DNA of 64,000 nucleotides from Candidatus Woesearchaeota archaeon (GCA_964409005.1 CAYPBR010000001.1:18383-82382); one strand, 5' to 3'; shown: positions 4,163 through 51,486, numbered from the stretch's first letter. The notes: generated by a model from the letters alone, not told the origin. A program made the numbers and translations.

Positions 4163-6040
4163 TTAACTTACCTCTTCATAAGTTCCTGGCTTTGCAAGTT
4201 CAACATCTATCCAATATACAGGTAAAAACTGTTTTGGATTTTTAGATACCCACTCAATATTTCTTAATCCGCCTACACCTTTCGGAGCATAAACTGTATC
4301 ATAGTCCTGAAGAAATTCATTACCACTTTGTCTACTTATATCATAATCTTGAAATAAAGTTTTCTTTTGCCCTAATGCGTTTTTACATACAAATAATACT
4401 CCCCTCGTTCCTATTTGTCTACTAAAGCCTTTACCTACATATTGTAACGACTTTGAACTATTCGATGATCCATAAATTCCGTCACCTATCATTCTACCTA
4501 CTTCAGGTTTTGTTACTTTAAATCCGCCCCTTGCAATCTTAGCAGCGTTCTTAAACGCCGTTCCGTGATATGAGAATGTTACATTCCCTATATCTTTTTC
4601 AACTTTTTTATAATCTTTATAATAACTTGTATCATCAATTTTAAAAATGTTATGTATTTTAAATCCAAAGCTTCCATGTTCATCTTTATCAAAGGTCGAC
4701 TTCATTTTATCGTATACTTTCTTTTGCTCTTTTGACGATGCATTACTTAATGAAAATGTTTTACGCTCTTCACCTTGCTCTGATAATGCCGATAACAGTT
4801 TCTTTTTTGCCGATTCTCCTTTATATGCCTGACTTCTTTTTTCTATAAATAACTTTCTTAATTCTTCAGCATCGTCTACTCCATAAGCTTCTTTTGCATT
4901 TATCAATTTAGAATTTTTTCTCATTTTAGGAAGTAGTATCTTATTTGTATAATATGCTGTATATAGCGCTTCAAACCATTTCTTTGATTTAGGATTATCT
5001 TTTTGAGTGCTCGTAATATCTCTTTTCAATTTCTTTACTACATCTAATTTTATATTTCCAATATCACTCATTATATTTTTATTCCTTTTCATAAAATCTT
5101 TACTTTTTTTCATCGGTTCTGTCTGCACATTAAAAGCATCAATCAATTGTTTTTTTTCTACAGCCGTTATACCTTTAGCTTCTTTAATTATTTTAATATT
5201 ATCTGTATTATCATCACTCCAATAATCAAGCATATAACCTTCATCGGATATAAGCGCTGAATATCTTTTTAATACAATTGGAATCGAGTCTACTATTTCA
5301 GCTCTATCCACTTGAGGCATCATACTTACTTTAGCACTATCAAAATCTTTATAATTATCAACAGTATATCCTCTTTGTTTAGCAACCTTCTTTAAAGTCT
5401 TATTATAATATTTATCATATATTTCTTTTCTTACATTATGTATTGCATTACGTGATCTACTTACTACATTATCTAATTTCTTACTTTCTTTTCTTAACGC
5501 TCGTACATTTTCATCCTTTGCATACTGTTTCAATAATATTTTTCTATATGGTTCTATTACATCTTTCATTTCCTTCGGCATTCCTGTAAACATTTTAACG
5601 CCGTACTTCTTTTCCATTTCTATTATCTCACCTAACTTTAATCCAATTTTATTTGTTGTATACTTACTTGATGATCCCATGCTAGGATGATAAATCCACT
5701 TTATATATCCCGGCAACTTACTATAATCAATTTTAATCGTCGACGCTTTAAATATACTTGCCATTTCATCGCTTACATATTTCAGCGACCTCGTATCTTT
5801 ACATAATATTCCAGTACTATCTAATATTTGCTTCTGCTCTTTATTTATTTTCGGTACTCCCACAACTTTTTCTTTAACAGTCTTTTTTCTTTCTACTGCT
5901 GCAGCCACTCCCACATACTTCATCACTCCAGCAACTTTCTTATACTTCAGTAACCTTCCCTTTATATTATATGTTACTACTTGACCCTCAGCAATTCTTC
6001 TTCTTTTTTGTGCCTTAACAAATAACATATCCTTCCTCAA
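4163..6040 (-). CDS. lysine-rich protein with a C-terminal PARP-like ADP-ribosyltransferase catalytic domain
   Basis: C-terminus matches the PARP/tankyrase catalytic core. 'YHGTAFKNAAKIARGGF' ~ 'FHGSPFVNAIIHKGF' and 'GDGIYGSSNSSKSLQY' ~ 'GAGIYFAENSSKSNQY'. 'LFVCKNALGQ' ~ 'LLLCRVTLGK' and 'NIEWVSK' ~ 'AEYVIYR' (catalytic Glu). The H-Y-E triad is present. Confidence 0.7.
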   Translation of the reverse strand: MRKDMLFVKAQKRRRIAEGQVVTYNIKGRLLKYKKVAGVMKYVGVAAAVERKKTVKEKVVGVPKINKEQKQILDSTGILCKDTRSLKYVSDEMASIFKASTIKIDYSKLPGYIKWIYHPSMGSSSKYTTNKIGLKLGEIIEMEKKYGVKMFTGMPKEMKDVIEPYRKILLKQYAKDENVRALRKESKKLDNVVSRSRNAIHNVRKEIYDKYYNKTLKKVAKQRGYTVDNYKDFDSAKVSMMPQVDRAEIVDSIPIVLKRYSALISDEGYMLDYWSDDNTDNIKIIKEAKGITAVEKKQLIDAFNVQTEPMKKSKDFMKRNKNIMSDIGNIKLDVVKKLKRDITSTQKDNPKSKKWFEALYTAYYTNKILLPKMRKNSKLINAKEAYGVDDAEELRKLFIEKRSQAYKGESAKKKLLSALSEQGEERKTFSLSNASSKEQKKVYDKMKSTFDKDEHGSFGFKIHNIFKIDDTSYYKDYKKVEKDIGNVTFSYHGTAFKNAAKIARGGFKVTKPEVGRMIGDGIYGSSNSSKSLQYVGKGFSRQIGTRGVLFVCKNALGQKKTLFQDYDISRQSGNEFLQDYDTVYAPKGVGGLRNIEWVSKNPKQFLPVYWIDVELAKPGTYEEVS

Positions 6041-8682: not shown

Positions 8683-9216
8683 TTGGTTTTCTTGTCTTCT
8701 CTGGCTCGCTTTATCCCTCTGGTTTTCTTTTTCAGTGTGACTCGCTCTTATAGTCTGGTTTTCTTTTTATTATAGGCTCGCTTCCTCCTCTTGGTTTTCT
8801 CATTTTGACTGGCTCGCTTTACCCATCTGGTTTTCTCATCGAATCTGACCCGCTTCTTTTTTCTGGTTTTCTTATTGATCCCGGCTCGCTCTATGCCTCT
8901 GGTTTTCTTCCCCTCAGTGACTCACTCCTTTTTACTGGTTTTCTCATTGACTTCGGCTCGCTCATGCATGCTGGTTTTCTCTCAAAAAATGGCTCGCTTC
9001 TCTTTGCTGGTTTTCTCGTTGAACCCGGCTCGCTCTGTTTGCTTGGTTTTCTCATTTATTTTGACTCGCTCTTTACGCCTGGTTTTCTCATGTACCTTGA
9101 CTCACTCAAATGAATTGGTTTTCTTTCTTTCTTTGGTTCGCTTTACCCATCTGGTTTTCTTCCTTATTCAGGCTTCATTATGCTTATTCAAATATTCTTC
9201 TTTATATGGTTTTCTT
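8683..9216. repeat. tandem array of about 13 imperfect 36-bp direct repeats, iteron-like (candidate replication origin or centromere-like site)
   Basis: Each unit has invariant blocks GCTCGCT and CTGGTTTTCT separated by variable 8-nt and 10-nt spacers. Half-units lie at both ends. The array is intergenic between minus-strand genes. Confidence 0.8.
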
Positions 9217-44954: not shown

Positions 44955-44993
44955 AAAAAAATAAACCCGACCATATTTCAGGTCGGGTTAAAA

Positions 44994-45230: not shown

Positions 45231-45280
45231 TTTTCTACCTCCTTATTAAAATTGCAAACCCTCAATTGAGGGCTATTTGT

Positions 45281-45472
45281 TTAACACCTCTTTTTCTTTT
45301 TTTTCTTTAATCGCTCAATTAGATTTTCTAATTGCTCAATTTTTTTATTCTTTTCCTCTATGATTTTATTACAATACTCTTTATGATCTTGATACATTAC
45401 TACATAACCATCAGATTCTTCACTATATTCAATTAATCCTCCCAAAGCCTCTACTGCATCGTATCTTTTCAT
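45281..45472 (-). CDS. hypothetical protein (63 aa)
   Basis: Flanked by conserved hairpins. Confidence 0.4.
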   Translation of the reverse strand: MKRYDAVEALGGLIEYSEESDGYVVMYQDHKEYCNKIIEEKNKKIEQLENLIERLKKKKKKRC

Positions 45473-46007
45473 TTTGTTACCTCCGTTATTAAAATTGCAA
45501 GGGAGTCAATCGACTCCCATTTACCTATAGTCTAATTTTTAATTGATCTTTCTGTGCTCTTGCAGGATCACCGTTTAACAATCTCACAACATAATCGAAA
45601 GAACCAAGTTTCAATTCAACTATAGCTTGAGTTAAAAATAGTATAGAAATTTTGCTTCGATACCAAACTTTATCACCTACTTCATAATTCATATTGCCCT
45701 CCATTTTTAAAATTGCAAGCCAGTCAATTGACTGGCTATTATAACTAATTTGCTACTCTTTCTCCGTCTATATCACAAAGCCACCTACATCACGAAGAGT
45801 GTAATCAGTTATTTCTAATTCAACACTATCAACCAAACTACGTTCTTGATTGATATTCAAAGAATTAAGTATATAATCAAAATACTCAATTTTTTCCGAA
45901 TCTCTATTGCCGTTAAAATCGTCTCTGTGAATTGTTATAATCATCTTACTACCTCCTTAATTAGTTTATTCAACAGGAAGCTCTTTTGGAGCTTCCCATT
46001 TAACAAA

Positions 46008-46433
46008 CTACCATTCTATTCCTACCGCAAATCTTGTTCTAATGCCACTCGCAAACTTGTCATAAAATTGGCCTTCATGACTATAGGCCGGGCGGATATA
46101 GTGACGATACAAATCCACATACAAATCCTTTGTTATGTTGATTTTTGTACCGACAATATAGATATCGCGATAAGGAGAAAAGCTGAGCTTTTCACTACGC
46201 TCCACCACACTACGCTCCACCAATACACTGATGCCACCATAAAGTGTCATCCAGTGCCAAGGCACAAATTGTACATTAATCTCTGTTTCAAATAACTCTA
46301 CTTCTTCTACATATCCAAATTGTGCGTTACCATGTATCTCAGCTCCCTCTGCTTTAAAGGCTATCATCATCTCAAGAGTAAAAATGACGAGAAAGATGAG
46401 TACTACCAAGCAAATCTTTTCAAATCTTTTCAT
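46008..46433 (-). CDS. outer-membrane beta-barrel protein (Lom/Ail/OmpX-like) with a signal peptide
   Basis: N-terminal signal 'MKRFEKICLVVLIFLVIFTL'. Alternating amphipathic strands. C-terminal 'RFAVGIEW' ends on an aromatic residue, typical of OMP beta-barrels. Confidence 0.55.
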   Translation of the reverse strand: MKRFEKICLVVLIFLVIFTLEMMIAFKAEGAEIHGNAQFGYVEEVELFETEINVQFVPWHWMTLYGGISVLVERSVVERSEKLSFSPYRDIYIVGTKINITKDLYVDLYRHYIRPAYSHEGQFYDKFASGIRTRFAVGIEW

Positions 46434-46483
46434 AATGTTACCTCCTTAATAAGATTGCAAGGCCCCCAATTGGGGGCCTGTTC

Positions 46484-47386
46484 TTAAAGTCCGAATCGCT
46501 CACTGATCTGCCGGGAAAGGTCATTACGTCTTTCTTCACTAATGACATTATTGTGACTTAATGTATTAGTGAATGTATTCAGTAAATCCCATGAAGTCAT
46601 TTTCCTGGTCATCTCAAGTTCAACAGCACCTTCATTATCATTAAACTTTACAAACTTGTGATGTTCAAGATAATCCAATGCCTCATCCTGCATAAATCCC
46701 GGCACATCGTTCAAGTGCTCCTGTAATACAACAGGATTAACTTGTTGTTTTGAAAGAGCCACGATTTGCGGAAGAACCTTTCTATCAAAGTTAGCAAACT
46801 TTTCCATAAAACGTTCAACCATCTGTTGAATGTCAAGATTCTTTGAATGACGCTTTCTTTCAGAATAGAGCATTTCATTTACAGTTGCTCCATTTGTACA
46901 GATCAGTCTCAATATGTATGCACTGATCTCATATTTGATTGACCTGTCATAAGAATTCGTAATCTTAAATCCCGGTGCAATAACATCACCGACTTTAGGA
47001 TTTTCAACAGCGCATATACCAAGTTCCATTTCTTGTTTAAATCTGAACTCAGCATACATTCTCGCACCACCTCCTGACATTCTCATATTCACAGGTTCAA
47101 CTTCCGGCAATCCGTTTTTCTTGAAGGTGTCAATAACATTATAAACTGCTTCTTTGTGAGAAACAAGCTTATATTCTCTTGACACTACTCCAAGATTAAT
47201 ACCAGTCTTAGCATTATAAACGTTGTCAAAACCAGTATCATTCCCCTGTGAGTTAAACGACTCTTCCCTTTCAACTGGAAAGTTAAAAGCTTTAAGCTGT
47301 TCGGGTTTAAAAATTGTTTTAGTACTCATAGAGTACCTCCTTAAAAAGATTTTTGAATTGATATAACTTAATTCAACAGGAAACAC
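46484..47386 (-). CDS. phage/plasmid-associated protein (280-300 aa). The likely real start is 'MSTKTIFK'. It may belong to a DUF932-type family, but that is uncertain
   Basis: Noticeably higher GC than the flanking genes; no catalytic motif recognised. Confidence 0.45.
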   Translation of the reverse strand: MFPVELSYINSKIFLRRYSMSTKTIFKPEQLKAFNFPVEREESFNSQGNDTGFDNVYNAKTGINLGVVSREYKLVSHKEAVYNVIDTFKKNGLPEVEPVNMRMSGGGARMYAEFRFKQEMELGICAVENPKVGDVIAPGFKITNSYDRSIKYEISAYILRLICTNGATVNEMLYSERKRHSKNLDIQQMVERFMEKFANFDRKVLPQIVALSKQQVNPVVLQEHLNDVPGFMQDEALDYLEHHKFVKFNDNEGAVELEMTRKMTSWDLLNTFTNTLSHNNVISEERRNDLSRQISERFGL

Positions 47387-47427
47387 TCTTTCAAATGTTT
47401 CCCATTTAATTAAGTTTATAAAAGATT

Positions 47428-47787
47428 TTACTCTTCTACAAGATACTCAATTAAAACATTGTAATAAATATTGTACCATACTTCTTTTTGATTCTCGTCA
47501 ATAAAACAATCATTAATGATTTTCATTAAAGGTTCATAATCACCAAACGTTGTAAAAGTTTTCATAAGTCTATAAATCGCAACAGAATCAATTTGCGTAT
47601 CTATATACTCTTTGTAAGTTGCTTCCATATAAACGCTAGCTAAACCTCCGAAATAACCCCGAAGATATATTTCTTTCTCACGATTAGTAAATGAAAGCCA
47701 ATCTTCTTTAATAAGCTCATACGCCATTGACTGGGAAACAATTAAAGCAAATAGCACAACTAAAACTAAAATCTTTTTAATGTTCAT
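47428..47787 (-). CDS. secreted / periplasmic protein with a signal peptide (119 aa)
   Basis: 'MNIKKILVLVVLFALIVSQSMA' is a signal peptide. Confidence 0.5.
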   Translation of the reverse strand: MNIKKILVLVVLFALIVSQSMAYELIKEDWLSFTNREKEIYLRGYFGGLASVYMEATYKEYIDTQIDSVAIYRLMKTFTTFGDYEPLMKIINDCFIDENQKEVWYNIYYNVLIEYLVEE

Positions 47788-47834
47788 AATAAACCTCCTT
47801 AAAGATTTTTAATAGAGTTTTACATTTAATTAAG

Positions 47835-48056
47835 CTAAATACTATTTGTATTACGATAATTAATATAATCTCTATATCTTTCTTTTCTTCTATCACCAAC
47901 ACCAACCCACGCAACATTACTAAAACATTCTTTGATATACCATCTTAGTTCAACTCCATCCCAATTATCAGGCATCTTGCTGATTTTCTCTAAAATCTCT
48001 TTCTTCACAATTTCAATCATTCCTTCGAGAAAATTTTTTCTTTCTTTTTCATTCAT
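47835..48056 (-). CDS. hypothetical protein (73 aa)
   Basis: Minus-strand ORF. Confidence 0.4.
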   Translation of the reverse strand: MNEKERKNFLEGMIEIVKKEILEKISKMPDNWDGVELRWYIKECFSNVAWVGVGDRRKERYRDYINYRNTNSI

Positions 48057-48114
48057 TTTACTACCTCCTTATAAGATTACGAAGGGAGTGTAAATTAAAT
48101 ACTCCCTTACTGAA

Positions 48115-48294
48115 TTAATTTTCTTTCCGTACAATTTGAAAGCCTGCGCTTTTAAGAGCAACTCTGATTGAAGTAGCTATATCATATGGTTTATCTAATT
48201 TCATATTCTTAGCTGATACGACTCCTAAAATCATCGCATTTTCAATCATTGCATTCTTAACTACTTTATCTGTTTTTTTATCTGAAGCTGTCAT
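48115..48294 (-). CDS. small hypothetical protein (59 aa; MTASDKKTDKVVKNAMIENAMILGVVSAKNMKLDKPYDIATSIRVALKSAGFQIVRKEN)
   Basis: Hand-translated; sits between two hairpin elements with an RBS 'GGAGGTAGCAAAATG'. Confidence 0.35.
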   Translation of the reverse strand: MTASDKKTDKVVKNAMIENAMILGVVSAKNMKLDKPYDIATSIRVALKSAGFQIVRKEN

Positions 48295-48354
48295 TTTGCT
48301 ACCTCCTTAAATTTAATTCAGCAAGGGAGTCTTTTTCAAAACTCCTATGCTCAA

Positions 48355-48660
48355 TCAAATAGTCTGTGGTTTCATAGCTTCTATATCAGTCAAACACAAT
48401 AATTTTACTTCTTTTTCAGTAAGGTAACTACAATTCCACAAACCATTTTTAATAGGTAATTTAAATTCATCAGGTCTTGTTTTCCATGTCTTTAAATTAC
48501 CATTCACCCTCCATCTTTGAGGAGTTCCATCTGCATTACGATTTATAACATGGTATAATATATCGCCATGTTTTAAGTTGTTTACTTCTTTTCTTGTTAT
48601 CATTTTAATACCTCCTTGTAAAATTACAAGGGAGTCGATTGACTCCCTGTTAAAGATCAT
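48355..48660 (-). CDS. hypothetical protein (101 aa)
   Basis: Minus-strand ORF. Confidence 0.4.
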   Translation of the reverse strand: MIFNRESIDSLVILQGGIKMITRKEVNNLKHGDILYHVINRNADGTPQRWRVNGNLKTWKTRPDEFKLPIKNGLWNCSYLTEKEVKLLCLTDIEAMKPQTI

Positions 48661-48809
48661 TTAATAAATATCGCAACATGATCTTTATTTTCTCTAATAA
48701 TTATCTTTTCCAAATGCGAGCAACAGTTACCTGTCCACGTATCAACTTTAATATTACATACAGGACAAATAATATTTCTTGATTCAATTACTACTTTAAT
48801 CTTTTTCAT
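48657..48809 (-). CDS. small zinc-ribbon protein (50 aa; ...CPVCNIKVDTWTGNCCSH...)
   Basis: Hand-translated; below the ORF-track cutoff. Confidence 0.35.
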   Translation of the reverse strand: MKKIKVVIESRNIICPVCNIKVDTWTGNCCSHLEKIIIRENKDHVAIFIK

Positions 48810-48860
48810 TTTGTTACTCCCTTATAAGATTGCAAGGGAGTCGATTGACTCCCTGTGTAA

Positions 48861-49073
48861 TTAATGTTTTTGAACTGTTATATAAAATTGTTCATCTGCT
48901 TTTGTTGTAATTACAATTCCTACATCATTAGTTAAAACACCTTGTTCTTCAAAACTGTTAAAAGTTCTAATCTCATCGACAATACTATCGTACATATCAT
49001 TGTCGCCTACTAATGTAATTCCTTCACAAAGTAAATCAATCACATCATTTACATCCATTTTTTTCTCCTTCAC
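48861..49073 (-). CDS. hypothetical protein (70 aa)
   Basis: Minus-strand ORF. Confidence 0.4.
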   Translation of the reverse strand: MKEKKMDVNDVIDLLCEGITLVGDNDMYDSIVDEIRTFNSFEEQGVLTNDVGIVITTKADEQFYITVQKH

Positions 49074-49110
49074 TTCTAAGATTACAAGGGAGCCGATTGA
49101 CTCCCTGTTA

Positions 49111-49353
49111 TTATATCGCTAAAGCCTTTGCAAGATATTTAAAGAAGTGTAAACAATTACCATTTTTAAAATCAATCTTAACTAAAATATTTTTGATTTG
49201 TTTTTTTCTTTCTATGCAAGTATTTTTAATAGTATCTAAAACTACTTGCAATGGTATCATGTTTTCACCGCTCTCACCTTCTACAAAAAAGAAATCTTCA
49301 ACGTCATAACCTTTTTCTTCAACTAATGTATCTAACCATTCAGCAAATTTCAT
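49111..49353 (-). CDS. hypothetical protein (80 aa)
   Basis: Minus-strand ORF. Confidence 0.4.
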   Translation of the reverse strand: MKFAEWLDTLVEEKGYDVEDFFFVEGESGENMIPLQVVLDTIKNTCIERKKQIKNILVKIDFKNGNCLHFFKYLAKALAI

Positions 49354-49433
49354 TTTATTTCTCCTTCATTTAATTTACTGCTTTGGCACTTCCAGAGCAT
49401 GATCTCTGATAAAGACTTCAAAGTGCCATAAAT

Positions 49434-49661
49434 CTAATTCTTGCGGTAAATATTTATGCCGACATTGAAGTCAGCAACCTTTACGTTACCGCGAGTTGAA
49501 GCAAGAACCATTGATTTTCCTGATCCACTCAACGTTCCCTTTCCGCCCAAGTTAATTTCCATTTTGAGCTTCTTTGTTTTTGTATCATACTCGTACTTAA
49601 TCTCATCTGTTAATTTCTCCATCTTACTACCTCCGCATTTAATTTTACTTTTTTCTCTCAT
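49434..49661 (-). CDS. hypothetical protein (75 aa)
   Basis: Preceded by promoter-like motif copy P1. Confidence 0.45.
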   Translation of the reverse strand: MREKSKIKCGGSKMEKLTDEIKYEYDTKTKKLKMEINLGGKGTLSGSGKSMVLASTRGNVKVADFNVGINIYRKN

Positions 49662-49692
49662 TAAGTATATTACGTAGTTACGTAACTTATGA
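49655..49692 (-). promoter_or_regulatory. phage-specific promoter-like motif, copy P1
   Basis: Minus-strand TCATAAGTTACGTAACTACGTAATATACTTAATGAGAG. Confidence 0.45.
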
Positions 49693-49734
49693 TTAATTCA
49701 GCAAGGGAGCCTCTTACGAAGCTCCTATGCTCAA

Positions 49735-49980
49735 TTAAAGATGCTCAAGGTATCTTGTTTTTCCACAATACTCACATGACAATCCTTTATCTGATATTCC
49801 ACTACACCAATGACATTTCATTTTCTGCGGTCTTATATCATCAATAACTTTTTCAACCATGTTCTGCATTATTCGCATACCACTTTTAGATATGCTTTTA
49901 ATTGGAGTAGTATTGAATTGATCTTTAAAAAGATAATCAGTTTCAACTTCAACTGTCATATTCTCAATTGCCTTGATCAT
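49735..49980 (-). CDS. hypothetical protein with a CxxC...CxxC motif (81 aa)
   Basis: 'CHWCSG...CEYCGK'. Confidence 0.4.
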   Translation of the reverse strand: MIKAIENMTVEVETDYLFKDQFNTTPIKSISKSGMRIMQNMVEKVIDDIRPQKMKCHWCSGISDKGLSCEYCGKTRYLEHL

Positions 49981-50135
49981 GTCAGCCTACTGCCAATTAA
50001 CATGTCCAAATTTTGATATGTTGTGGATGTAAATACTTGATGCATTTGCTTTGATTTTAATCTTCATTTTGTTACCTCCGTCTTAGGATTGCGTCGGATC
50101 AAAGGAAAAGCGTTTTCACCTTGATCCGGTTAAAA

Positions 50136-50468
50136 TTAAATAGTTGGTAGTCCAAGATAGTTATCGTCGCTCTCAAACCACTTTTTGAGTTTGGCGCACA
50201 TCTTTACAGATGCTTCATTTCTTAAATCGTACCAACCATCTTTGTCCAGTTCAGCATACTTCTTTGCAACTTCAACTATTGTTCTCCAAAAGCTCTGTTG
50301 TAAAGTTCTATGCTGATGAGTGATTGCATCGAAGAAATATTTAACGTGTTTTTCATAAGAAAAGTTATTAATCTCATTAAATAGCTGATCGACAATTTTT
50401 CTCATTGATTCACGTTCAGTTCTTTCTCTCATTGCATCTTCCATTTTTTCTTCTTCTGCTGGACTCAT
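50136..50468 (-). CDS. hypothetical protein (110 aa)
   Basis: Minus-strand ORF. Confidence 0.4.
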   Translation of the reverse strand: MSPAEEEKMEDAMRERTERESMRKIVDQLFNEINNFSYEKHVKYFFDAITHQHRTLQQSFWRTIVEVAKKYAELDKDGWYDLRNEASVKMCAKLKKWFESDDNYLGLPTI

Positions 50469-50534
50469 TTTACTACCTCCTTAAAGGATTTTTTATTTCT
50501 AAGATTGCAAGGGAGTCAATTGACTCCCTTTTGT

Positions 50535-50741: not shown

Positions 50742-50779
50742 CCCTCACTAAATATATTACGTAACGCCGTAACTTATGA
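50742..50779 (-). promoter_or_regulatory. phage-specific promoter-like motif, copy P2
   Basis: Minus-strand TCATAAGTTACGGCGTTACGTAATATATTTAGTGAGGG. Confidence 0.45.
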
Positions 50780-50817: not shown

Positions 50818-50850
50818 TTAAAAAAAACAGGGATCGTTAAATCCCTGTTT
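50818..50850 (-). terminator. rho-independent terminator (CAGGGATTTAACGATCCCTG followed by T8 on the minus strand)
   Basis: GC-rich stem followed by a U-run, read on the minus strand. Confidence 0.6.
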
Positions 50851-50855
50851 CGTGT

Positions 50856-51110
50856 TTAATATGTAAATTTTGCATCTTTTGTCATTGACCACAACAAGGC
50901 ATCAGCATTAATTATTCCAACTCTGTTGTCATTAAGATATATACTAATCTCTTTTCCTACCAAGGACTTTGGTGTCCTATCGTTTATAAGATTAATAACA
51001 TCTTTTGTGATCTTTAACTCGCTCCTTTCCCTTATCTTATAGGTAAAGTTAAGTGCGTTTAAAGCTATACCTGTTTTTTCGGCATCGCCTTCACTCATTG
51101 TTCTCACCAC
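50856..51110 (-). CDS. hypothetical protein (84 aa)
   Basis: Minus-strand ORF. Confidence 0.4.
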   Translation of the reverse strand: MVRTMSEGDAEKTGIALNALNFTYKIRERSELKITKDVINLINDRTPKSLVGKEISIYLNDNRVGIINADALLWSMTKDAKFTY

Positions 51111-51134
51111 CTTTCATTATAAGATTGCTTTTAA

Positions 51135-51180
51135 AAAAGAAGGAAGGGAAGGCCTTTTCCGGAAAAGGCCTTTTATCTTT
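51135..51180 (-). terminator. bidirectional intrinsic terminator (GGCCTTTTCCGGAAAAGGCC with T-runs on both sides)
   Basis: Perfect 8-bp GC-rich stem. TTTTATCTTT follows on the plus strand; TTCCCTTCCTTCTTTTTT follows on the minus strand. Confidence 0.6.
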
Positions 51181-51440
51181 ATAGTGGGTTTCAGTTAGTT
51201 GATATTTTCAATCCACTAGGGATTAATTATAAACCTCCAAACCTATCGGAAGTACTCTCATAAGAGCCTCGGTCTACGGATAAAACCGCTTCCTTCCCGA
51301 GCTGTCACCCGGACTAACCTACATCAGTCTTTCCTGATAGCCAGATTATCTCGAAAACTTAGTGTCAAGTCCCTTCCTTCAGTCGTACGACTTCTTATGT
51401 TACTGCTCCGATACCTTAGCGGATTCAGAATAACGAAGCA
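51181..51440 (-). ncRNA. candidate structured non-coding RNA, about 260 nt, GC-enriched, bounded by two terminators
   Basis: No ORF on either strand. Markedly higher GC than the surroundings. Multiple nested inverted repeats (TACTGCT...AGCAGTA; AGTCGTACGACT; CTTCC...GGAAG). Confidence 0.3.
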
Positions 51441-51443
51441 GTA

Positions 51444-51477
51444 GCATAAAAAGCGGAATATATTTCAACTCCGCTTC
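51444..51477 (-). terminator. rho-independent terminator (GCGGAGTTGAAATATATTCCGC followed by TTTTTAT on the minus strand)
   Basis: Stem-loop plus U-run directly after the stop of the 51487..51912 gene. Confidence 0.6.
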
Positions 51478-51486
51478 TCACGACAG

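Follow-up and report, generated by a model that had tools for sequence, protein, structure and literature searches.

In T4-like myoviruses, the promoter-early stem-loop (PeSL) is a composite of a stem-loop, a sigma70-like early promoter (-35, N17, -10), a Shine-Dalgarno (SD) sequence and a start codon (PMC4122927), and it has been proposed to supply the homology for cassette exchange (PMC2839356; PMC4122927). Stem-loops with energies from -6.6 to -31.8 kcal/mol take part in the selective RNA processing and stabilisation (SRPS) of the cip-cel operon of Clostridium cellulolyticum (PMC4423207). Cluster K mycobacteriophages carry a 13-bp start-associated sequence (SAS), located 3-9 bp from the start codon and with the ribosome-binding site inside it, and the sequence-conserved extended SAS (ESAS) repeats, now read as SigA-type promoters with an operator-like repeat (PMC3203893; PMC11373665). 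Here we describe a family of intergenic elements from an uncultivated, AT-rich phage of approximately 30% GC, found in a stretch of 64 kb (CAYPBR010000001.1:18383-82382, referred to throughout as the window) out of a 96-kb contig, the other 32 kb of the genome lying outside it. The element, termed class A, is a GC-rich hairpin followed by the box G(C/T)AAT(C/T)TTA, an SD sequence (AGGAGG) and ATG, and nine copies are present in the window. As to class, these elements work like PeSLs as cassette junctions but fail to show the embedded sigma70-like promoter by which PeSLs are defined.

All nine copies are on the minus strand, the coding strand of every gene in the window, between 45244 and 50533. 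They lie in a cluster of approximately 17 genes of 50-281 aa, between 50738 and 44556, for which no Pfam match is on record, the DUF932 protein excepted. The gaps in this cluster measure 47-112 nt, compared to typically about 10 nt elsewhere in the window, and nearly every one contains a GC-rich hairpin. In the nine gaps the stop codon is followed by 2-30 nt, a stem of 7-9 bp, 0-2 nt, the box, 1-17 nt, a strong SD sequence and ATG (Table 1). A covariance model built from 16 copies gave nine full-length matches in the window, all on the minus strand and nowhere else, with E-values of 4e-11 to 8e-7 for eight copies and 0.19 for the long-loop copy at 48069-48111; on the plus strand only palindromic stems were matched. 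The exact motif TTGYAATYTTA occurs nine times in the 64 kb, and eight of these fall on one strand of a 5.3-kb stretch of the cluster. The hairpins fold at -10 to -18 kcal/mol, with z scores of -2.7 to -5.4 relative to dinucleotide shuffles, and the box is single-stranded in the minimum-energy folds. No curated RNA family in Rfam was matched between 44000 and 53000 at E-values up to 1.

Relatives were found through homologues of DnaB, the DUF932 protein and a 115-aa protein encoded beside the cluster, on contigs from metagenomes. A metagenome scan with a three-sequence alignment gave nine short contigs, of which one (L019) was useful. The composite is present in nearly every gap of the small-gene arrays of L021-L025, whose DUF932 proteins are 61-89% identical, and of L011/L018 and L019; thus the covariance-model scan suggested with the original prediction found the element in related phages rather than its absence. 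The stems of the relatives are very different (GGGAGTC, GGGGAG, GGAGAGA, GAGGTAGA, GAGACAGA, GGAAGGA, GTGGAGGA, GCGGAGA, CAGGGAGG and others), and the box is either GCAATCTTA or the alternative GCACTAATA(TTATAA). In a table of 40 non-redundant copies, drawn from the window and seven contigs of related phages, there are 35 distinct 5' arms, and 324 of the 340 stem cells are Watson-Crick paired. Stems range from 6 to 13 bp, most often 8, with loops mostly of 4-6 nt. Stem and box are separated by 0-2 nt in 39/40 copies.

Several details of the original prediction changed when these copies were compared. It had counted eleven hairpins with one common flank; nine carry that flank and six others belong to different classes, while the wider remark that GC-rich hairpins fill nearly all of the gaps was borne out. 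The flank is conserved in the nine copies, not as the proposed TTGCAATCTTA but as the 9-mer GCAATCTTA, since the two bases ahead of the GCA vary across copies (TT, AT, AC, TC, CC). A constant sequence between box and SD had also been proposed; the distance is 1-6 nt in 36/40 copies and 9-17 nt in the other four. Nor is the loop conserved, as had been thought. In the window it is AATT (elements 1, 6, 7 and 9), AATC (2, 3 and 4) or GATT (8), each of 4 nt, or 11 nt long (element 5), and among the relatives TTAATT, ATAAAA, TTACG and others are found. The core of the observation stands, with the count and the uniformity of the flank overstated. Its interpretation had put forward no mechanism; both of its parts, selection on structure and hairpins that are not classical terminators, are supported by what follows.

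The hairpin is selected for pairing and not for sequence. In an alignment of 21 copies from five phage contigs, aligned by the model, 93.4% of the cells are paired and changes on both sides occur at all 8 modelled pairs. None of 500 shuffles matched the observed paired fraction, the number of cells changed on both sides, the number of further pair types or the covariation score, and one of 500 reached the observed number of pairs with double changes. When the partner was moved by one to three columns, pairing fell to 40-60%. A compensatory change is also seen at an orthologous position, the hairpin after the DUF932 gene, which is GGCCCCC/GGGGGCC in the window and GGCCCTC/GAGGGCT in L022, the closest relative. 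In L023 and L024 the upstream stop codon often lies within the loop, so that the 5' arm is coding sequence and pairing is kept nonetheless. The negative control consisted of 683 kb of unrelated viral contigs with a chance box and SD (80 of the at least 120 single-copy loci with this pattern in IMG/VR), and gave one marginal match to the model. An exact 18-mer of hairpin arm plus flank matched IMG/VR twice, both times within coding sequence without a hairpin, and these matches were set aside as chance. The balance of G.U over A.C mismatches was 10 to 4 (p 0.18) under fair scoring, an asymmetric scoring having made it look like 11 to 1; as T-tract hairpins used as a control gave an equally weak 8 to 5, the test has no power here.

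Two ways of extending the structure were tried and rejected. Lengthening of the class A stem, by pairs between the box and either the upstream flank or the stop codon, gave only 2-5 weak and inconsistent pairs, and a pseudoknot between a CAAUUG loop and the box is at odds with loops that are 4 nt long and variable in relatives next to a constant box. Resemblances to boxB-boxA (the nut or rrn antiterminator) and to the T7 epsilon enhancer are only loose.

The hairpins share with intrinsic terminators a GC-rich stem of 7-9 bp, a short loop and a position just after the stop codon, and in the relatives their stems belong to the same families as those of real terminators. They differ in having GCAAUCUUA in place of a U-tract of about 7-9 nt, and in that genes continue downstream without a promoter. 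Across all 40 copies the longest T-run after the stem is 4, with a mean of 3.7 T in the first 10 nt, and a lenient filter for a hairpin plus T-run was passed by one of the nine window copies (element 4). Genuine terminators with at least 7 T exist in the same genomes; in the window, examples are the two that bound the cluster (Table 1) and one at 52410-52384. A rough classifier was applied to 101 gaps in eight arrays, and by its assignments the 38 gaps with hairpin and box contained no T-tract and one promoter box, while the 20 T-tract terminators were followed by a promoter box in 16 cases and by a hairpin-less box as restart in none.

Two more distant relatives, L006 and L008 (DnaB 56% identical), have the small-gene array on the opposite strand, and each of its gaps contains a hairpin with a similar AT-rich loop, a classical T-tract and then a conserved promoter-like sequence. 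The latter can be read as TTGTCT-16-yAaAAT, with AAGTTACG in the spacer, and ends a few bases ahead of the SD. In L021 one and the same stem, GGGAGTC/GACTCCC, is accompanied four times by ATGCAATCTTA and in one further instance by T9 plus a promoter. We read these arrangements as indicating that the hairpins come from terminator stock: where the U-tract is missing, transcription would continue and no promoter would be needed, and where termination is real a full promoter would follow. The clade thus holds two states, terminator plus promoter for each gene in the distant relatives and read-through hairpin plus 9-nt box in the window phage and its closer relatives, which offer a natural comparison between one-gene transcription units and a punctuated polycistron.

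The same geometry would suit an attenuating or factor-dependent pause or stop, in which the 9-nt box takes the position of the RNA-DNA hybrid of a terminator and either sets an expression gradient along the array or allows a phage factor to convert the hairpins to terminators and shut the array off. The narrow spacing of stem and box, a box of just the hybrid length that a U-tract normally fills, its A/U-rich 3' end and the stems held in common with genuine terminators in relatives are all consistent with such a device. Bacterial RNA polymerases, however, need a U-rich hybrid for release, and the box has G or C at three of nine positions and no U-run. It also misses the pause consensus G-10 Y-1 G+1 in every fixed register, no candidate factor was identified, and promoters are present at only 2 of approximately 17 gaps, which implies that most of the RNA reads through. 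A pause or conditional stop is on balance unlikely.

Whether the box could itself be a promoter bears directly on the comparison with PeSLs. The likeness is considerable. In both cases a repeated intergenic composite places a stem-loop directly upstream of a conserved regulatory sequence, followed by SD and start codon; both occur in hyperplastic regions of small genes of unknown function, coincide with the break points of indels and replacements, and belong to phages with their own recombination system. The full layout of terminator, promoter and SD is however confined to L006 and L008. The class A element has no -35, N17 and -10 but only the 9-nt box, in the 10-20 nt between stem and SD, and its stem-loop lacks a U-tract. 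The phage, moreover, is not T4-like, having a PolIII-alpha type polymerase and a DnaB, with a terminase only distantly related to that of SPO1-like phages.

On the explanation that the elements are nonetheless true PeSLs in compact form, the box would be the -10 of a minimal promoter, used by the host RNA polymerase either alone or together with a phage factor; every small gene would have its own transcript, starting at the SD or slightly before it, and the preceding unit would be terminated by the hairpin. Since PeSLs are defined as such composites (PMC4122927), the fit is close in outline. The equivalent gaps of L006 and L008 are all terminator, promoter and SD, with a start that must fall right at the SD; the type-1 box contains yAATyT, which meets the -11A and -7T; and the type-2 box, GCACTAATAT, resembles the 3' half, TACATAATATA, of the full promoter box. 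That full form, ATAAGTTA-N7-TACATAATATA, which is related to the promoter-like sequence of L006 and L008, is kept by the window phage and its closer relatives at a few places only (four in the window), and it is this form, never the 9-mer alone, that comes after real T-tract terminators. The position of a -35 is taken by a hairpin of variable sequence, the TG before GCA is replaced in relatives by AC, TC or CC so that there is no extended -10, and base 10, which an alternative register would make the -7, shows no conservation. Sigma70-like matches are about as frequent in the region as expected by chance (48 compared to 42.5 +/- 5.3), with 1-6 nt between box and SD the transcripts would in most copies have to begin within the SD itself, and a hairpin without a U-tract would not terminate. 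We consider this explanation rather unlikely.

Two specific promoter readings were rejected. With TTGCAA as a -35 and a -10 at 16-18 nt, the downstream distance varies between copies and the TT is not conserved in relatives, and an extended -10 (TGn) fails because CG replaces TG in many relatives. A hairpin promoter of the N4 type has a stem of 5-7 bp and a 3-nt loop and is read by a giant virion RNA polymerase. The loops here are mostly of 4-6 nt, and the largest open reading frame in the window, of 1109 aa, encodes a polymerase III alpha. A further box at 51128, after a T-tract terminator, was not used as evidence, the orthologous sequence in L021, AAAGCTTAAAATG, suggesting that its resemblance is partly due to chance.

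Gene order in the arrays was compared by tblastn of the small proteins of the window, and is shuffled among the window, L022, L021 and L023. Gene 50738, which precedes gene 50468 in the window, is downstream of the DUF932 gene in L021, where genes 48603 and 48294, adjacent in the window, are reversed and separated. L022 is without the genes at 48294, 46433 and 45692, and there gene 49622 follows gene 45472. In blastn alignments, three single-gene indels relative to L022 break inside elements. The homology of L022 1748-2659 to window 47358-46450 ends on the last base of the box and resumes at 45957, just before the next SD. The hairpin at L022 2882-2907 aligns to both of the window hairpins that flank gene 45692 (H1 and H2, elements 7 and 8), and a three-way alignment reveals a chimeric junction, whose 5' flank and two arms are those of H1 and whose sequence after the box is that of H2. 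In a second case the crossover is between box and SD. From these alignments of relatives, the elements emerge as the break points of single-gene insertions, deletions and rearrangements. The positions of the crossovers differ from case to case (5' arm, 3' arm, box, after the box), which fits homologous exchange over approximately 45 bp of shared sequence and not a fixed cut.

Cassettes bounded in this way recall integrons, where attC hairpins, likewise conserved in shape and variable in sequence, lie at the 3' end of promoterless cassettes in the same orientation. The elements might by analogy be structure-specific recombination sites: a dedicated enzyme would cut hairpins that are extruded from the DNA or form in it when single-stranded, and the array would be an integron-like platform. 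Variable hairpins with a conserved end do bound one-gene cassettes here, as with attC, the break points lie within the elements, four window copies are perfect DNA palindromes of 14-18 bp including the loop (CAATTG), and the G.U test is compatible with DNA. The features that define attC are nevertheless missing: there are no R''/R' boxes (RYYYAAC/GTTRRRY), the flanks being A-rich on the 5' side and GCAATCTTA on the 3' side, and no extrahelical bases, the stems being perfect or with G.U only. The stems are short (7-9 bp) and the crossovers vary, as expected of homologous exchange. Among the 25 Pfam families listed for 80 window proteins there is no tyrosine-recombinase integrase or other integrase and no HUH nuclease, and no attI was seen in the 64 kb. 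We regard a dedicated DNA site of this kind as highly improbable.

The explanation we favour, and to which we would give an even chance, is that the elements are terminator-derived read-through hairpins which punctuate a polycistronic array at the RNA level and at the same time supply homology for the shuffling of cassettes. The role as cassette junction is shown by the comparisons of relatives set out above; the RNA mechanism is one that we infer. Class A elements all point in the direction of the coding strand, are restricted to the small-gene cluster and are kept in relatives down to 61% DUF932 identity. Transcription would start at the ATAAGTTA-type promoter boxes at 50777 and 49690, and one long polycistronic RNA, or two, would read through the hairpins up to the true terminator at 44989. 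Each hairpin would there cap the 3' end of the upstream cistron and block 3' exonucleases, probably once an endonuclease has cut in or next to the box, and the box with the SD would form the same short leader for every cassette. At the DNA level, the 40-50 bp of nearly identical hairpin, box and SD would serve as homology for the exchange of single-gene cassettes, which could be carried out by the RecA, SbcCD-like nuclease and 5'-3' exonuclease encoded by the phage.

The capping role has a precedent in the U-less intergenic stem-loops that stabilise processed operon transcripts (PMC4423207). As in SRPS, the stem-loops here are free of U-runs, lie at the 3' ends of cistrons within a polycistronic unit and have energies in the same range (-10 to -18 kcal/mol), and they too go with the gene upstream. 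Gene 48603-48355 of the window and its orthologues in L021 and L023 all have a bipartite hairpin, termed class B', behind them, although the next gene differs; judged from such cases, an upstream gene tends to retain its class of hairpin even where it has acquired another downstream neighbour, which favours a role at the 3' end. The SRPS stem-loops, on the other hand, form no sequence family, have no conserved adjoining box and follow selected genes only, and their processing is demonstrated, where that of the present hairpins is predicted.

A conserved sequence so near the SD also suggests a translational operator, with a phage RNA-binding protein (a global repressor like RegA of T4 or a nuclease like RegB) reading the foot of the hairpin and the box and silencing or destroying all of the array mRNAs together. 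A protein bound at the box, 1-6 nt from the SD in 36/40 copies, would occlude the ribosome site, and free stem sequences with variable loops are what would be expected if shape and box were read. There is a parallel in the start-associated conserved sequences, of unclear role, of cluster K mycobacteriophages (PMC3203893). SAS and ESAS are alike in being short conserved sequences just upstream of many starts, often after an inverted repeat and of unclear role, and unlike in that they show no sequence similarity to the box and that no shuffling of cassettes has been reported for them. The box is, however, coupled more tightly to the hairpin than to the SD, from which four copies are 9-17 nt away. 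Box-like tails separate hairpin from full promoter in L024 and also at 49737-49657 in the window, where the sequence is TTGCTGAATTA; the tail therefore behaves as a part of the hairpin unit and not just of the ribosome site. No RNA-binding or RNase family is included in the 25 Pfam families listed for the window proteins, which represent 64 of the 96 kb. We consider an operator improbable.

Several points weigh against the read-through and capping explanation itself. Read-through, cleavage and stabilisation are all steps that we infer. The alignment used to measure covariation was fitted to the model, and some of the stem variation reflects a few stem families that have spread within genomes rather than independent events. 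As the G.U asymmetry is not significant, the structure is not tied to the sense-strand RNA, and a DNA-level structure is possible; an RNA hairpin has no need of the four perfect palindromes. The box also holds a -10-like hexamer (yAATyT), so that a promoter role is possible. Finally, a plain 3' stabiliser does not require a conserved 9-mer, and the box therefore implies a sequence-specific reader, be it a polymerase, an RNase or an RNA-binding protein. It is at the conserved box that the stabiliser account is weakest, and no candidate reader was identified.

A bolder proposal would make that weak point the centre: hairpin plus GCAATCTTA as a self-contained, U-tract-free signal for a dedicated phage factor, acting either in the stop and restart or the cleavage of transcripts, or as an integron-like DNA site in a virulent myovirus. 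We think this quite unlikely. If true, some machinery still to be described would recognise its target by the sequence of the box and be anchored by the shape of the hairpin. A short, strongly conserved box without a known reader provides a handle for finding a new factor at the RNA or DNA level.

The variable small-gene arrays of large virulent phages hold most of their anti-host and anti-defence genes, and the expression and fast turnover of these arrays are poorly understood outside T4. The cassette-junction behaviour of the class A element extends a T4-specific idea to an unrelated lineage, in a clade without a cultured member. It suggests that the PeSL principle, a regulatory junction doubling as a recombination handle, arose there as well, and the element could be used as a search key for small-gene arrays in metagenomic phage contigs.

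Table 1. Class A elements and other features of the small-gene cluster and its surroundings. Coordinates are those of the window; lower-case letters mark loops and spacers.
Feature	Coordinates (strand)	Structure or sequence	Context	Model score and folding
Class A element 1	50500..50530 (-)	AAGGGAGTC-aatt-GACTCCCTT (50530-50509) + box GCAATCTTA (50508-50500)	upstream of gene 50468-50136	53.9 bits, E 4e-11; -15.2 kcal/mol, z -4.95
Class A element 2	49077..49106 (-)	AGGGAGTC-aatc-GGCTCCCT (one U.G pair) + t + box GTAATCTTA (49085-49077)	upstream of gene 49058-48861	48.8 bits; -14.1 kcal/mol, z -4.25
Class A element 3	48825..48854 (-)	AGGGAGTC-aatc-GACTCCCT + t + box GCAATCTTA (48833-48825)	upstream of gene 48809-48657	51.8 bits; -14.0 kcal/mol, z -5.4
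Class A element 4	48619..48648 (-)	AGGGAGTC-aatc-GACTCCCT + t + box GTAATTTTA (48627-48619)	upstream of gene 48603-48355	49.1 bits; z -5.2
Class A element 5, long-loop variant	48072..48108 (-)	AAGGGAGT-atttaatttac-ACTCCCTT + c + box GTAATCTTA (48080-48072)	upstream of gene 48056-47835	18.1 bits, E 0.19; -10 kcal/mol, z -2.65
Class A element 6	46450..46479 (-)	AGGCCCCC-aatt-GGGGGCCT + t + box GCAATCTTA (46458-46450)	between DUF932 gene and gene 46433-46008	50.1 bits; -18 kcal/mol
Class A element 7 (H1)	45708..45737 (-)	AGCCAGTC-aatt-GACTGGCT + t + box GCAATTTTA (45716-45708)	upstream of gene 45692-45525	49.5 bits; -13.5 kcal/mol
Class A element 8 (H2)	45490..45518 (-)	GGGAGTC-gatt-GACTCCC + tt + box GCAATTTTA (45498-45490)	upstream of gene 45472-45281	51.9 bits; -12.8 kcal/mol
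Class A element 9	45247..45274 (-)	AGCCCTC-aatt-GAGGGTT (one G.U pair) + t + box GCAATTTTA (45255-45247)	upstream of gene 45230-44994	38 bits; -10.1 kcal/mol, z -2.76
Long related hairpin	50084..50129 (-)	CCGGATCAAGG...CCTTTGATCCG, then degenerate box GCAATCCTA, then SD		
Imperfect hairpin	49427-49385 (-)			
Class B' bipartite hairpin	49694..49737 (-)	lower stem TAATTGAGCA/TGCTGAATTA takes in stop codon; upper stem GGAGCTTC/GAGGCTCC		
Class B' bipartite hairpin	48314..48357 (-)	TGATTGAGCA...TGCTGAATTA	after gene 48603-48355	
Class B long hairpin	47365..47416 (-); hairpin 47407-47368	21-nt arms, core GGGAAACA...TGTTTCC	upstream of DUF932 gene	gap -25.3 kcal/mol
Class B long hairpin	45962..46010 (-); hairpin 46001-45965	22-nt arms, core GGGAAGCTC...GAGCTTCC	stop codon TAG within lower stem	
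Promoter-like box, cluster opening	50744..50777 (-)	ATAAGTTACGnnnnTACnnAATA......RTGAG, 34 nt		
Promoter-like box, other window copies	52368-52335, 51941-51908, 49690-49657 (-)			
Classical intrinsic terminator	50824..50851 (-)	hairpin + T8	bounds cluster upstream	
Classical intrinsic terminator	44964..44989 (-)	hairpin + TATTTTTTT	closes cluster	
Second promoter type	44954-44916 (-)	GTGGACGATTT...TATATAT	after closing terminator	

The six further hairpins of the cluster are two of class B, two of class B', a long one with a degenerate box and an imperfect one. Both class B hairpins have a tail, TGTTGAATWAA, that pairs with the upstream flank, in the form TGTTGAATTAAGTT in the copy upstream of the DUF932 gene. 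The class B' hairpin at 49694..49737 is without a T-tract and is followed directly by a promoter-like box. Class B' is a family in its own right, with members at L021 1878-3504, where six are consecutive, at L023 1734-1811 and at 49737-49694 and 48357-48314 in the window. The lower stem, TGATTGAGT.../...ACTAAATTAAT, is conserved and contains the stop codon of the gene upstream; an internal loop separates it from an upper stem of variable sequence, for 18-20 bp in total. In T7 and SP82, conserved hairpins with RNase III sites lie between the early genes and punctuate the polycistronic early RNA, and after processing the message upstream retains a 3' hairpin that protects it. The enzyme needs about two helical turns, that is approximately 20 bp or more, with interruptions allowed. 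Class A stems are too short for this, and only the class B and B' hairpins, with 18-22 bp and an internal loop, have the shape; from its predicted fold, class B' in particular may be said to resemble such processing sites.

The cluster is preceded by a classical terminator and a promoter-like box and closed by a second classical terminator (Table 1). The 34-nt promoter-like box contains a TAnnnT hexamer with no recognisable -35, and homologous boxes are present in L021-L024. An AAGTTA is conserved in it at about the position of the MotA box of T4 middle promoters. The second promoter-like sequence, at 44954-44916 and again at 30837-30799 on the minus strand, has the form GTGGACGATTTrCrTTTTCrTGGGTTTATATATrGTATA and is readable as TTTACA-16-TATAGT. 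It lies ahead of replication modules, and is also found after the array-closing terminator in L010, L011, L019, L021 and L024.

The source phage is contractile-tailed, encoding Baseplate_J and a tail-tube initiator, and has genes for a large terminase, DnaB, a DnaG-type primase and the PolIII-alpha polymerase, for several DNA methylases, and for the RecA, SbcCD-like nuclease and 5'-3' exonuclease already mentioned. PolIII-alpha is about 32% identical to its best phage matches; for PolIII-alpha, DnaB and terminase the nearest sequences, at 23-32% identity, are from SPO1-like and unclassified phages. A blastn search of the region against GenBank phages gave no nucleotide match, and a comparison of DnaB with IMG/VR returned only relatives of 27% identity.

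Some further features of the window and its relatives may be recorded. Upstream of gene 51098-50856 is a GC-richer intergenic region of 388 nt (51099-51486, minus strand), which folds at -128 kcal/mol (z -5.3 relative to shuffles) and has no match in Rfam. Both of its ends are kept upstream of the orthologous gene in L021 (1119-1236) and L023 (171-357), while the middle part, of approximately 250 nt, is present only in the window and ends in its own T-tract terminator; the region may represent a noncoding RNA or structured leader into which an element has been inserted. A gene at 4163-6040 on the minus strand, immediately upstream of the terminase region, encodes a 625-aa protein with a PARP-type ADP-ribosyltransferase catalytic domain (E 1.3e-16), which from its domain may be a host- or defence-modifying enzyme. 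At 8683-9107, inside a gap of 509 nt, are about 12 tandem copies of a 36-nt unit, with a conserved frame on the minus strand (GAGAAAACCAG ... GAGCGAGCC) around variable spacers. The arrangement looks like a set of iterons or a site of replication or packaging, and is also array-like. In L006, a tRNA-like sequence (4680-4883, minus strand of the locus; …GGTTCGAATCCTAACAGTGCCA) occupies one of the gaps between the small genes of the array. The replication modules of L006 (12302-13390) and L008 (12534-13631) encode a tubulin-like protein, with a weak or faint Pfam match, that is absent from the window.

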